Shown in pieces: positions 3,436 to 44,012 of a DNA stretch of 64,000 nucleotides. The translations under genes and the position numbers were made by a program. How positions within the stretch are numbered: position 1 is the first letter of the stretch; every line of letters begins with the position of its first letter. The notes under the pieces are model-generated. The model saw only the letters and a program-made list of their open reading frames with translations, had not been told where the DNA came from and made no database searches. The stretch is from a virus (taxonomy: Duplodnaviria; Caudoviricetes). The DNA lies in IMG/VR virus record IMGVR_UViG_3300037418_001301, positions 1-64,000 of that record. One strand, written 5' to 3'.

Positions 3436-4208
3436 CCGTTCCTCCTATTGCGTCCCGTTTTGATGGCGCTGATAGTCGTCTTGGCAACTCCATATTCGGA
3501 AGCCAGATCGACGCCGCGCTCGCCGCGGGAAAGCCTGGTTTTGATTCTGGAAACTTCTTGGCTGGTGAGTCTGCTCTTGTAGTGAGACTCGCCGAAGTAG
3601 GGATGGTATTCGGGGTCATCGTAGACGATGCGATCAGCACTAACGATGCCGTCAAGGTGCTTCCAAGTCCGGCCAGTGATTGCGCCCCATGCAGTATTTT
3701 TAGCGACACCAGTGGCTTTGATGATAGTTCCAAATGATGTGCCTTCACCTGCCATCCTTCGGATTTCCTTGACCAAATCACTGGTTAGGACTGATTTTCC
3801 AGAGTTCTCGCCGATTGCTGGCCTCATTCGTCCACGGCGCCATGCGTCCGCTACATTGTCGATCGGCAAGCCGCGCACTAGGTGATCAGGGTTGACGCAA
3901 CATCTCAAATCGCATCTGTGCCTGACGACGAAGCCAACCGACGATCCGTCTCCGTTGGCAGATTCGTAGCTAGTACGGTGCGCTGAATAGACTTTTTGTT
4001 TGAGGGTGAAATTGCCGTACCCGTCAGCCCCAGTTGCTCCGATCCATAACCAGCATCCGCTCATTGGCTCTTCAATGTATCGGTGGAAATATCGGCTATG
4101 AAAATCAGGAATGAAGGACGGAGTTTTTGCTACACCGCAGAACGCATCGCCAGCAACTTTGTCGACTAAATCCAGAGCCAGCGCGCCGATTGAAACAGCT
4201 TCATTCAC
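3432..4208 (-). CDS. Free-standing HNH (His-Me finger) homing endonuclease
   Basis: GCWLW...GYG...AHR.SY...VRHRCD...CVNPDHL...N; two C-terminal GE..KS.LT..V..I DNA-binding repeats; GTG start. Confidence 0.88.
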   Translation of the reverse strand: MNEAVSIGALALDLVDKVAGDAFCGVAKTPSFIPDFHSRYFHRYIEEPMSGCWLWIGATGADGYGNFTLKQKVYSAHRTSYESANGDGSSVGFVVRHRCDLRCCVNPDHLVRGLPIDNVADAWRRGRMRPAIGENSGKSVLTSDLVKEIRRMAGEGTSFGTIIKATGVAKNTAWGAITGRTWKHLDGIVSADRIVYDDPEYHPYFGESHYKSRLTSQEVSRIKTRLSRGERGVDLASEYGVAKTTISAIKTGRNRRNG

Positions 4209-4311
4209 GGTTCAAACCCTTTCGTGCGGCGTCGGCTTGAGCGACAACTGACAGGCTCAGATCGCCGATTGATTGTTCATTTCCTTGGATGTCGAGAAGG
4301 TCGGCCATGGT

Positions 4312-7006
4312 TCAGACATCCTGCTCAGATGGGAGGAGAGAGCGGAGCCGGAAGCACATGAAACGCTTCTGCTGCATCTCCTGGACTTGGCTGTCGGAAA
4401 TCGGCAGCATCGACTTGAAAAGCAGGTGGCGCTGCGCGTCGGTGTAGAGATTAAGGGCTGAGGCGAAATCGCCACGCTTGACGAAGCTGTCAGCCAGCAA
4501 CAGTATTTGCGCGTAATTCATGGCTACTGAACCTCATTTGCGATGTTGTAATTGTGACCGTTCTGCACCCCGCGCTCGGCAATCATGGCGCCAATGATGG
4601 CGAGGGTTCCGATCAGGCAGCCGATCTGTACGGCTTCGATGATGGCGTACCGGCGGTCAGCGAGGAGTTGGAGGAACTCTGGAAGATCACGCATCAGCGT
4701 CAACCTCCCACTCGCGATCAATCACGACTTCGTAGAATGGCTCATCCTCGTATTGCTCAAGGAGCGCGTCATAGTCGTCTTGAGACGCATCCCAGAGTTT
4801 TTGGACGACATCGCCTTCCACGTTATTCCACACGCTGATTTCGTATCGAGGTTCAGCCATTGGAGCCTCCCTGCATCGGAAGACGCTCAATGGATTCGAC
4901 ATTGACGTCCAACTCGCGGCCATCAATGCCCATATCCTTGATCTCGCCGTAGCCTTCGGTGAAGCAGTCGAGGAGCCCGCGAGCCTGCAGTTGAGCCAAA
5001 TGCTCGACGTGATCGTTGATGTCGTAGAACGGGTAGAAACTCTGTCGAAATTCGGCCATGAAGGCTTCATCGAACTTCGTCTCGTCCAGTTCTATTTCCA
5101 CGTCGATAATGACGGAGGCTTTGAATTTAGCCATTGCCTCCTCCATTGCCAAGCGCGGCGCGGGCGACATCGCCGCAGTCGCATATGGCGCTACCTTCCT
5201 GCTTTGCGACAGGGATGCAATTCTGAGTGAAGCATTCAGGGTCGCCATCCCATGAGGGGCTATTGATATAATTGGCCGGATCGGCGTAGAATTTCAGCGC
5301 CGCCTCCATATCTGCACGCGAGGCGACTGGCGACGATGGGCCGCTCAACAGAGCGACCTCAGCTTCGGATATTGCTTCTGAGAAATCGTACTCGTCGTAG
5401 ACGTTCGGTAAGGCGCTCGCAATTTTCATTGCCACATGAGCGCTGCGCAATGCTGCCATCAGTCGCTCGTTCTCCGCCTCCAGTTCTTCTACACGAGCCT
5501 GGAGAGCGGAGTAGGAGTTGACGGCGGTGACGATTGCTTGCGCACGCTCCGGCCTGCATATGCCAGACATCTCGAAATACTCGTTGCAGTCCGCATTGAA
5601 GGAGTTCTTCCAGCCGGACACCGTGAGATAGACGTGATGATGCTCGTCTTCGTCGCGGTCGCCGATGCGGAGTTCGTATTTATCAGGCGCGGTCATTGGC
5701 TGGCTCCTCGGAAAGGGCGGATGGGTTCACTGCGCCTAGAACGCGCTGTAGCGCCGCGATAATCGCCTCTGCTTCATGGTGAGGTTCTGGGCCGCGCAAT
5801 AGCGTTGCTTCCTCGCTTTCTAGGGAGGCAATCGGGCCGAACATCTCACCGATGGCATCTCGCACCATGCGGAGGGCAGCGGCGTAAGGGGCAACAGCAT
5901 CCGCGAAGAAGTTCGCTGGCTCCTCGGAAAGGATAGCCGCAACCCTCGCAGCAGCCCTGTACTGGCGCGTGACGCGATCCGGCGTGTTTTGGCAGGGGCA
6001 GTAATCATCCACCCCACGGCAAGCGCAGCGGTCGGCTTGGGCCTTCTGTTCGGCGACGGTGAGGAGAGGTTCAGTTCGCATCGCGCTCGTCCTCCCACCT
6101 GACATCGCGGTCATAGTCGGCGTCATAGCTGTCATCGAAGTCGTGATTTTCGGCAATCCAGCCGCACCATTTCCGGTCCTCTGCATCCGTCCACTTGATG
6201 TCGCTGCCAGCCTCATCCTTGACGCTGACGATCTCGACTTCACCGCCTTCGGGCGGATAACAATTTTCAGGCGGCCCGCTGGAGACGCCGGGATCGTATG
6301 GGCTGATCGTGTATTCGACGGTGACTTCCGTTTCGTCGTCGCGCTCAAATGAGGTGAAATGTGTTCTTGGCATCGCCTCAACTCCACATGTGTTCGCAAA
6401 TGCGATTGTTCGGATAGAAAAGCCGAGCGGAGACACGTTCGGCGTCAAGCTTGCGGGCGAAGCGAATGGCGTCCATATGATCCTGCGACCACATGTCGTC
6501 AGGACCGGCCCAATATGTTGGCGCGTCCGGGTTAGAGTCTCCGCGCTCGATGAGCCACGCGGTTTCCTGATTATGCATTTGCCACCTCGCTTTCGCGCTG
6601 AGCGCAGAACTTGTTGACACGACCGATCTGCCCGAGCGCCGCGGTAAGTTGTCGCTGGACATCCTCGACGGTGGCGCCAGCTGCAAACTGGCTGCCCATC
6701 CAATCTCCGAGCGAGGGAAGGACGTTGACCCGTACCGCAGCGGCCAGCATCAGTTTTGGATCAGTCGAGATGTAGAGCTTACGCATCGTCGCGGTCCTCG
6801 ATCTTGCGGCACATAGCGAGCGCCAGCGTTTCTAATCTCACCTGTGCGCTGTCGAGCATTATGGGACGGTCGTCGAGAGTTGCAGCCTTCGCTTCTATCA
6901 GGCGCCTGTGGAGCCTGGCCGCGGCGTCGATGGCCTGTTCAAGTTGAAACTGTGTCATGGCTGGCCTCCCTGGCGGCAGCAAATGCACTGAAGATTGCCT
7001 TGTCAT
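4312..7006 (-). other. Cluster of small coupled hypothetical early ORFs (e.g. 4312-4521, 5127-5696, 5683-6081, 6071-6373, 6378-6578, 6571-6786, 6779-7006)
   Basis: Consecutive minus-strand ORFs, many overlapping or nearly abutting and several with SD sequences; no recognisable domains. Confidence 0.55.
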
Positions 7007-41703: not shown

Positions 41704-41979
41704 ATGGCCGGACAACTTTGGTCAGTCAACACCCAGGGCGGTTATCTCTATTCCGATAACCTCTCTGACCACCTCCGCTTCGAACTGCAGCCGCGGACCA
41801 AGCTCCGCAATCTCGCCGACGCCTCCGACAAGGCAATCGGCCTGCACAAGGGCAACACCTTCCGCTGGGATCGGTTCTCCAAGCTCAACAAGCGCGGCGG
41901 CCCGATCGATGAGCAGCAGAGCATGCCGGAAACAAACTTCACCATCGGCCAGGCAAGCCTGACCATCGGTGAATTCGGT
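41704..41979 (+). CDS. Major capsid protein (N4-gp56-like), exon 1
   Basis: MAGQLWSVNTQGGYLYSDNLS...TIGEFG; joins in frame to NSVPYTG at 42959. Confidence 0.9.
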
Positions 41980-42958
41980 TATAGATTAGCCGCTTGATTT
42001 GGATTGGTAGTACCTTCGAAAGGTAACCGCCTTCGTGCCATATGTATCTGTGGCGCGATGGCACTTTATGCAAAGCGTTCTCAGATTGCTCGGATTCATC
42101 CCCAAAGATGGCTCCGAGGAAGTTGGGAGAATATGATCAACGTGCAGAATTATGCGAGACCCACGCCCTTCGTGGTTACGGTCCCCGCATAGTTGGCAGG
42201 TGTAGTTATCGCGTTTTAGAATTTCGAGGCGCAGCTGGCGATATTCGCTGGTGTCTCGGAACCCTCTGACGCCGCCACACCAATTGCCGTGATCCTTTCC
42301 AGTCGGGAAATCCCTAGAATACTCCTTCTTGGTTTTTCCTCTATTCCAAGCTACCTGACCTTTCTTTGACCGAAGCCATTTGGTTCGAAGAACTGGGTCA
42401 GAGGCAAGCCTCTCATTGACGTGTGACCAGTCGCAATAGGCTTCATGGCCTTTGCGAAATCCCATGCGTTCAAGCGATGGATGGTCTCCTTTCTTCATCC
42501 CTCTGTTCCAGCCCGCAACGGTTTGGGTCTTTCGGGTTTTGGGATGGTGACCAACCTTATATTCGCCAATGATCAGGCCGCCGCCTTCAGACCTTGGACG
42601 ATACACTGGGAATGGATAGAACGTTTCACCGCATCCGCATTTGCAGATAACAGCGGTTCGTTCTCTTTGCGCTTTGCTTACGCCCAAGTTAGTTCCTTTC
42701 GATGAGTAAATTCCGAATCTAGAAAACGGGGTGAATTGCTGGAAAGCCCAACCGCTGAGAGGCGAGGGTAATCAGCAGCCAAGCCGCATATGTAAGCCGA
42801 AAGGCCTAGGGATGCGGAAGGTTCAACGACTAGGCTTTGACGAAAGAATAAGAAGCCCACGAGCGCCCTGCGCCACACCATTGGCGATGATATAGTCTGA
42901 GCTACCGCGAAATCGGTAGAAGCGAGAGTTTAAACTACACTCGCGATAACACAAACTG
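41980..42958 (+). mobile_element. Group I intron 1 in the capsid gene, with HNH ORF
   Basis: Exon ends in U and intron ends in G. P1 CGGUUA/UAGCCG with a U-G pair. P AATTGCTGGAAA 42734, Q AATCAGCAGCC 42770, R GTTCAACGACTA 42821, S GATATAGTC 42889. Confidence 0.93.
41986..42687 (-). CDS. Intron-encoded HNH endonuclease, antisense to the intron
   Basis: RDNYTCQLCG...LHVDHI...NLRTLCIKCH; WNRG repeats; TTG start with AAAGGA SD. Confidence 0.9.
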   Translation of the reverse strand: MGVSKAQRERTAVICKCGCGETFYPFPVYRPRSEGGGLIIGEYKVGHHPKTRKTQTVAGWNRGMKKGDHPSLERMGFRKGHEAYCDWSHVNERLASDPVLRTKWLRSKKGQVAWNRGKTKKEYSRDFPTGKDHGNWCGGVRGFRDTSEYRQLRLEILKRDNYTCQLCGDRNHEGRGSRIILHVDHILPTSSEPSLGMNPSNLRTLCIKCHRATDTYGTKAVTFRRYYQSKSSG

Positions 42959-43616
42959 AATTCTGTACCGTACACCGGACTCCTCGAGAACCTCGGGGAA
43001 ATCGATGTCAAGGACATCATCGACCAGACCCTCCGCGACGACGCACGTCAAACGCTGGATCGTCTCGTCGGTTACCAGATGTTCCAGACGCCGCTTCGTG
43101 TGGCGCCGACATCCGGCACATCGACAACCGCTGTCACGTTGACCACCAACAGCGCGACCGCAACCACCAACAACGTCGAACTCGGCACTGGCCACATCAA
43201 GGCCATTTCCGATATCATGAAAGATCGTAACGTGCCCGCGTATGATGGGGACGACTACGTTGCGGTCACTCATGCCACGACGATGCGCACTTTCAAGAAC
43301 AGCCTGGAGACCATTCACCAGTACAGCGAGACTGGTATCCAGCTGATCTTCAAGGGCGAAGTAGGCCGCTACGAATCGATCCGCTGGATCGAGCAGAACG
43401 AAATCCCGAAGGGTCACGCCAATGACGCGGCGTTCAACCTGACCTCCGGTTCCGCCAACTACGTCTATGACGCCGTTGCCGACGACTGGAACAACGGGAA
43501 GTCCTCTTGGGCTCTGTTCATGGGCTCGGACACCGTTCTGGAAGCGCCGGCCATCCCTGAGGAAATCCGCGCAAAGTTGCCCGGCGACTACGGTCGCGAC
43601 AAGGGCATCGCTTGGT
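42959..43616 (+). CDS. Major capsid protein, exon 2
   Basis: NSVPYTGLLE...GEVGRYESIRWIEQ...DYGRDKGIAW; in frame with the listed 43079 ORF. Confidence 0.9.
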
Positions 43617-43935
43617 TGAACTGAAGAGGTATAGCCAAGCCTAAACTCCGTGAACTGACTGGAAACCCCTGAGAGCACAGAACGCCACAGCGTAGCTTGG
43701 AAAGGCAAGCGCGATGGCTTGAAAAGTTCTGTGATTGGGCAATCAGCAGCCAAGCCCCGAGAACCGGGGAAGGTTCAACGACTAACATGTAGGGCCAAGC
43801 GGCCCGAAGTGCGGAGCGCCCCTTACCCAAGGGGACGAAGATATAGTCTCGTCCCATAGGAAACTATGGGCAGCAATTGCCAGATGCGTTTGGCAAGAGC
43901 GGCACGGTTTTAGCGAAACCGTGTGAAGATTTCCG
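43617..43935 (+). ncRNA. Group I intron 2 in the capsid gene (ORF-less, 319 nt)
   Basis: P1 GCUUGGU/GCCAAGC; P10 GAGGUA (43626)/UACCUC (43938); Q 43741, R 43763, S AAGATATAGTC 43838; terminal G. Confidence 0.93.
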
Positions 43936-44012
43936 ATTACCTCGGCGGTGCCGGCCTGACCCACCAGGACGCCACCAACGCGCGTGTCATTTTGTGGGAC
44001 AGTGCTGCCTGA
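43936..44012 (+). CDS. Major capsid protein, exon 3
   Basis: T|AT restores W-Y-Y-L-G-G-A-G-L-T-H...WDSAA*; spliced CDS is 1011 nt (336 aa). Confidence 0.88.

Follow-up and report, generated by a model that had tools for sequence, protein, structure and literature searches.

An antisense HNH endonuclease gene occupies the P2 loop of a group I intron in the major capsid gene of an uncultured phage family

An endonuclease gene placed antisense in a capsid gene intron of a phage is already known from mycobacteriophage LittleE (Pope et al. 2013, PMC3706429; GenBank JF937101), in which the major capsid gene has a group I-type intron with gene 14 on its bottom strand, and splicing was shown by RT-PCR. 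The 177-aa LittleE gp14 is LAGLIDADG-like with an HNH-like tail and is unrelated to the 233-aa HNH family described below; the position of the gene in the ribozyme, the promoter and the conservation across phages were outside the analysis of that study (PMC3706429). Nuclear rDNA group I introns (Didymium I-DirII and the L2066 introns) likewise carry antisense endonuclease genes in a peripheral loop, where His-Cys box enzymes are expressed from their own promoters, independently of the host transcript (PMC3073962, PMC9548176). These elements differ from the present one in being eukaryotic, with a Pol II promoter, spliceosomal introns and polyadenylation, in encoding another enzyme family, and in residing in an rRNA gene and not in a protein-coding late gene. 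The T4 (I-TevI/II/III), SPO1 (I-HmuI) and Pf-WMP3 (I-PfoP3I) systems share with it a group I intron in a conserved phage gene and an ORF with expression signals of its own, placed in a loop of a peripheral helix; the HNH enzymes among such endonucleases nick DNA close to the insertion site (PMC3428280, PMC2988022). Their ORFs, however, are on the sense strand and are translated from intron-containing or internally initiated sense transcripts, and none of these endonucleases has been reported with an opposite-strand stop codon in the P1 3' strand. The first-pass annotation of the DNA analysed here was right that phage intron endonucleases usually run in the sense orientation, although LittleE is a published exception.

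A standing question for phage introns is how a selfish endonuclease gene inside an essential, very highly expressed late gene can be expressed and leave splicing unharmed. The HNH family presented here offers a clean natural design: a reversed gene with a putative private promoter, which fills P2 and whose C-terminal codons double as the P1 guide and a P2 strand. In contrast to the LittleE gene, the HNH gene fills P2, overlaps P1 and is laid out in this way in 20 of 20 loci, so that the inverted HNH is a fixed design of an uncultured phage family. What is added to the LittleE case is an HNH enzyme family, a defined position in P2 that overlaps P1, a conserved candidate promoter tied to a P2 strand, and naturally occurring alleles without the ORF or without the intron in the same habitat.

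The window, i.e. the whole stretch of 64,000 nucleotides that was analysed, is part of a 75.3-kb IMG/VR virus record rated complete. The head module of this record contains an SU10-type portal gene and an N4-gp56-family major capsid gene, the latter in three exons separated by two group I introns:

41704-41979, plus strand: capsid exon 1, 92 codons ending in ..G-E-F-G, from DNA aligned to the intron-less allele L173
41980-42958, plus strand: group I intron 1, 979 nt, with the 5' splice site after U41979 and the terminal G at 42958
42959-43616, plus strand: capsid exon 2, from alignment to uninterrupted homologues
43617-43935, plus strand: group I intron 2, 319 nt, no ORF, matching RF00028 at 76.2 bits (gathering score 50)
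43936-44012, plus strand: capsid exon 3, from alignment to uninterrupted homologues

Exon 1 is 88% identical to residues 1-92 of an uninterrupted 336-aa homologue (P0123), with all 92 residues covered. The predicted spliced capsid protein also has 336 aa, and dozens of uninterrupted homologues are exactly as long (identity up to 88%). Intron removal restores the capsid reading frame as it is in these homologues, and both resulting junctions, ..GEFG/NSVPYTG.. and ..GIAW/YYLGG.., are identical in P0123 and in the intron-less L173 DNA. The parts of intron 1 to which the text refers are as follows:

41976-41992, plus strand: P1 hairpin, in which exon CGGU and intron UA (41976-81) pair with UAGCCG (41987-92, the internal guide); the loop is 41982-86
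41986-42687, minus strand: putative HNH homing-endonuclease gene (Pfam HNH), 233 aa, TTG start, TAA stop
41993-42003, plus strand: P2 5' strand, pairing with 42712-42722; the opposite strand codes for the last HNH residues
41995-41997, plus strand: in-frame TGA, from the translation, which halts ribosomes entering intron 1 from exon 1
41999-42716, no strand assigned: 718-bp cassette (HNH gene and 5' leader), with a 33-nt hairpin in its place in closely related phages
42693-42698, minus strand: Shine-Dalgarno (SD) sequence AAGGAA, 5 nt upstream of the TTG
42712-42722, plus strand: P2 3' strand, the complement of which in relatives holds the putative -35 box of the HNH promoter
42716-42745, minus strand: weak candidate HNH promoter (TTTCCA, 18-nt spacer, TAGATT; 8/12 positions)
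42723-42958, plus strand: J2/3 and ribozyme core (P3-P9, 3' extensions), from the Rfam alignment; 87% identity to the core of L003

The core of intron 1 matches Rfam RF00028 at 65.8 bits over 42680-42919 (gathering score 50), and the P1/P2 portion of this alignment is poor because the real P1 sits 700 nt upstream. In P1 there is a U41979.G41989 wobble at the 5' splice site, and P10 can form between AUU (41985-87) and AAU (42959-61), the first three bases of exon 2. Across relatives the guide covaries with the exon (GCCG/CGGU, GCGG/CCGU, and GCCCG or GCCCC/GGGU), as does P10. It had been proposed in the first-pass annotation that the flanks GATTTGGA (41996-42003) and TCCGAATC (42712-42719) pair and loop the ORF out; they do, and the helix is longer than was claimed, with 10 pairs and one U.U mismatch between 41993-42003 and 42712-42722. 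The P2 flanks pair in 20/20 related loci even as their bases differ from locus to locus, and over these 20 loci the cognate flank duplexes have a mean energy of -15.0 kcal/mol versus -8.3 kcal/mol for non-cognate ones (0/20000 permutations as low; p < 5e-5). The pairing is real on two independent lines of evidence, namely this covariation and ORF-less variants of the intron that retain P2. The idea that the HNH gene is free-standing between two capsid gene fragments is rejected in view of the ribozyme core, P1/P10 and the exactly restored 336-aa frame.

The minus-strand HNH ORF with its own SD and TTG start is found where it had been annotated, and it scores 31 bits with Pfam HNH PF01844 (cut-off 21.4). 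In the alignment its TTG falls in the column of the homologues' ATG, the homologous proteins starting with MG[VTI]SK.Q. The overlap of the stop codon with P1 was also borne out by the sequence: the TAA (41986-41988) takes in the final base of the P1 loop and the two bases with which the P1 3' strand begins. The ORF fills the P2 loop, and its final codons lie opposite the P2 5' strand and the guide sequence. Eight residues (D160, C164, C167, H185, N201, C206, C209 and H210) are invariant across 32 sequences and are all kept in the HNH of the window, which has the catalytic His, Asn, His and two CxxC zinc pairs. In a structure search, the C-terminal 80 aa resembled the phage GVE2 HNH protein (5h0m), which among solved structures is closest to the nuclease domain. 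For the N-terminal ~140 aa no Pfam, PDB or fold match was obtained (pLDDT ~50-88); this region is Cys-rich, with a CxCGC motif and repeated GH.P / WN.G.xK motifs, and is presumably the DNA-binding part. It may be an undescribed module.

A protein search returned 403 homologues of the HNH protein, ~100 of them full length at 45-75% identity. Full-length relatives were gathered through this search, contig look-ups, and viral and genome scans. In the phage GenBank collection neither the locus nor the HNH gene had a close relative, the matches being limited to generic core matches to intron 2 and distant HNH domains, and a scan of metagenome contigs with the HNH alignment gave only distant HNH domains among the matches listed. 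Against the related loci L001 and L003 the HNH gene has a dN/dS of 0.11-0.13, a ratio indicating that it is under purifying selection. A stop-free "mirror" frame is absent, with 5 stops in the window and at least 1 in each of the relatives.

Since the capsid transcript cannot be translated into the endonuclease, the HNH protein must come from its own minus-strand mRNA. We consider it likely that the locus is a mobile group I intron with a P2 loop cassette, from which an antisense HNH homing endonuclease is made by way of such an mRNA. The capsid pre-mRNA would fold P1 and P2 around the cassette and splice, giving the 336-aa capsid protein. The minus-strand mRNA would give a protein in which the ~140-aa Cys-rich region precedes a zinc-bound HNH (beta-beta-alpha-metal) nuclease domain. 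In co-infecting relatives this enzyme would nick or cut capsid alleles that lack the intron, and perhaps also those with an ORF-less intron, close to the EFG/NSV junction, and by analogy with the HNH intron endonucleases I-HmuI and I-PfoP3I (PMC3428280, PMC2988022) repair after cleavage would copy the element.

The family has expression signals that fit a separate mRNA. Most relatives have a conserved block resembling a sigma70-type extended -10 (TGnTATAAT, TATAGT or TAGAAT) between the P2 3' strand and the HNH start, and at many loci TTGAC(C/T) upstream of this block is the complement of the P2 3' strand. Two classes of spacing were observed: in the first the -10 block lies 5-8 nt before an ATG, implying a leaderless mRNA, and in the second the distance is 26-32 nt and a GGAGG-type SD intervenes. 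ORF-less introns lack the block, which argues that it serves the cassette and not the ribozyme. Per-locus promoter scores beat shuffles in only ~1/3 of loci, and the case for a promoter is made by positional conservation and by the coherent spacing to ATG or SD. The TATAAT block is also partly palindromic, and a small hairpin in the sense RNA is possible as well. In most members of the family, then, the HNH mRNA may start at a sigma70-type promoter between the P2 3' strand and the start codon. From the layout we infer that such a private promoter would uncouple endonuclease synthesis from late capsid transcription and keep ribosomes off the P1-P2 part of the ribozyme.

The window departs from this pattern. 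It lacks the family -10 block, the homologous positions reading TAGATT and AAGGAA, and no minus-strand sigma70-like site in the window passes the promoter scan. The candidate at 42716-42745 is below the scan threshold and does not score above shuffles, but its -10 ends 28 nt before the TTG, a spacing typical of the family. The first-pass claim that the HNH gene needs a minus-strand transcript of its own was sound, with the candidate promoter of relatives exactly at the expected start, although in the window itself the match is only 8/12. Because the -10 block is lost and a TTG start follows the SD, HNH expression in this phage is probably low.

One could go further and suppose that the HNH copy of the window is silent or nearly so, recently immobilised and heading to loss, with the intron persisting only as a self-splicing passenger. 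The missing -10 block, the altered -35 position and the change from ATG to TTG all speak for such a view, as does the greater depth of ORF-less derivatives in three metagenome runs (see below). Yet all 233 codons of the ORF are intact and no invariant residue is lost, its dN/dS is ~0.12 against L001 and L003, the SD is well placed before the TTG, and the weak candidate promoter sits at the family-typical 28 nt. Full decay is argued against by the intact ORF and the low dN/dS, and we regard a silent copy as unlikely. The copy may instead be entering the decay that gives rise to ORF-less introns such as those of the same habitats.

A second role for the minus-strand transcript also has to be weighed. 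The HNH mRNA could double as a regulatory antisense RNA that pairs with L2, P1 and exon 1 and blocks splicing or translation, thereby timing capsid synthesis or homing. Such a transcript is fully complementary to 41986-42687, a scan of the window found no terminator past the HNH stop, so that it would cross P1 into exon 1, and the antisense layout with its own putative promoter is conserved across the HNH family. Against this, the window lacks the family promoter, L2 is peripheral so that pairing there need not perturb the ribozyme core, and abundant close relatives carry ORF-less introns without the cassette. An essential antisense-RNA role is argued against because the cassette is dispensable in nature, and such a block of splicing or translation seems to us very unlikely.

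These ORF-less relatives bear directly on the preferred reading of a mobile intron with its own endonuclease gene. ORF-less forms of intron 1 are present in runs X2-X5, which are soil and rhizosphere metagenomes with close relatives of the phage. In run X3 an ORF-less contig (depth 35.7) joins 41998 to 42717 via 33 other bases, which form a hairpin atop the same P2 stem, and run X5 has loose contig ends matching the same joint. Run X2 has both forms, the ORF form being a 702-nt contig without differences. In runs X3-X5 ORF-less intron 1 outnumbers the ORF form by depth, with contig depth being a poor measure; an HNH copy that is weakly expressed and in early decay fits this excess. Among the contigs listed from the four metagenome runs none lacks intron 1, and intron-less homologues are common elsewhere. 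The element is thus polymorphic for presence and absence, given ORF-less intron 1 in X2-X5 and the many uninterrupted 336-aa capsid genes. Because P2 covaries and ORF-less relatives swap the cassette for a hairpin, the 718-bp cassette is a separable module in L2. Its GC content is 0.51 and its GC3 0.52, versus a GC3 of 0.72-0.76 for the phage genes, and the low GC3 is consistent with a recent horizontal arrival. As ORF-containing, ORF-less and intron-less alleles co-circulate in soil phages, the timing of the endonuclease, antisense effects on splicing and the cycle of invasion, decay and loss are directly testable.

The same comparisons bear on whether the HNH protein has been domesticated to serve the phage, for example in packaging as a terminase-associated HNH, without a homing role. 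The GVE2 protein is the closest solved relative of the nuclease domain and the gene sits in the head module, but closely related phages do without the gene, most capsid homologues are uninterrupted, the HNH gene always accompanies one intron at one site, and its codon composition is foreign to the phage. We consider such domestication highly improbable.

The first-pass annotation had further suggested that the HNH enzyme might help to mobilise intron 2 by co-conversion. The distance of about 660 bp given for this purpose is close to the 658 nt measured between the two introns, and intron 2 is indeed ORF-less. Co-conversion is nonetheless unnecessary, because intron 2 assorts independently of intron 1 and relatives have a sense-strand endonuclease gene of their own at the intron-2 site. 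In L001 and L003 the HNH intron is present and intron 2 absent. Related soil phages in run X4 have an intron-2-less allele with the joint 43616 to 43938, and in runs X4 and X5 a variant of intron 2 has a 489-nt insert at 43885/43891. In L012 an endonuclease-like ORF runs in the sense direction within the intron at the intron-2 site. Endonuclease genes of both orientations thus occur in one capsid gene family, antisense in intron 1 and sense in intron 2.

The inverted arrangement extends well beyond the window. In all 20 full-length loci with genomic context (the window and 19 further distinct loci, which include an Aromatoleum anaerobium LuFRes1 prophage, L004, whose -10 block is the TATAAT version, and MAGs of Thermodesulfobacteriota and Thermotogae) the HNH gene is antisense to the ribozyme, lies on the opposite strand between capsid exons 1 and 2, and has a capsid-strand RF00028 core abutting its start. 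All 20 fall in capsid modules of the N4-gp56/SU10-portal type. The HNH stop codon is at or past the 3' end of the guide sequence in 15 of the 20, so that genes of this family usually overlap P1 and P2. Antisense endonuclease genes in phage capsid introns are accordingly not a one-off, which is relevant to the annotation of split capsid genes in metagenomic phages. At L020:2495-3136 the HNH frame stays open for 36 nt beyond the guide 3' end and apparently crosses the 5' splice site into the complement of exon 1.

Homologous HNH introns sit at two capsid positions that are 8 nt apart (41972-41979 and 42959-42966 in the window; loci L001-L169). At the first type of site (type a), which is that of the window, the intron directly follows the E-x-G codons, and at the second (type b) it follows AAYTCSGT, at the second base of the Val codon in N-S-V. 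The site type is matched by covariation in the guide sequence and in P10. That types a and b are two clean lineages was rejected, as the two are intermixed on the HNH tree and on the ribozyme-core tree alike; the mis-framed L018 was disregarded on the HNH tree. The trees force at least three switches between the types. Possible explanations of these switches are that reverse splicing has occurred repeatedly, at look-alike CGGU sites, or that two old lineages have exchanged internal patches by gene conversion.

It is tempting, if doubtful, to see in the inverted layout a selected design and not a frozen accident, with the HNH gene transcribed early by host sigma70 and the element toggling between targets 8 nt apart by guide-directed reverse splicing. 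If so, the P2 3' strand would have the -35 box of the HNH promoter as its complement, homing would be over by the time the late capsid transcript is made, and the ribozyme of a very highly expressed gene would stay free of ribosomes. Toggling between the positions after the E-x-G codons and after AAYTCSGT, at look-alike CGGU sites, would then document, in nature, the transposition of an intron by reverse splicing.

Introns are concentrated in the capsid gene of this phage group, a hot-spot with at least five different insertion sites among relatives, some of them with sense-strand HNH_3 or LAGLIDADG_2 genes. Further intron sites were seen at L007:2087-2378, L016:1361-1659 and L021:444-741, and in L168 (downstream of intron 1). 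In L006, a region upstream in the same head module (L006:4024-5090) gives a group I-like match of 47.2 bits, slightly below the cut-off. This element holds a 250-aa LAGLIDADG_3 ORF on the opposite strand (4105-4857), a second and unrelated antisense endonuclease gene in the same phage.
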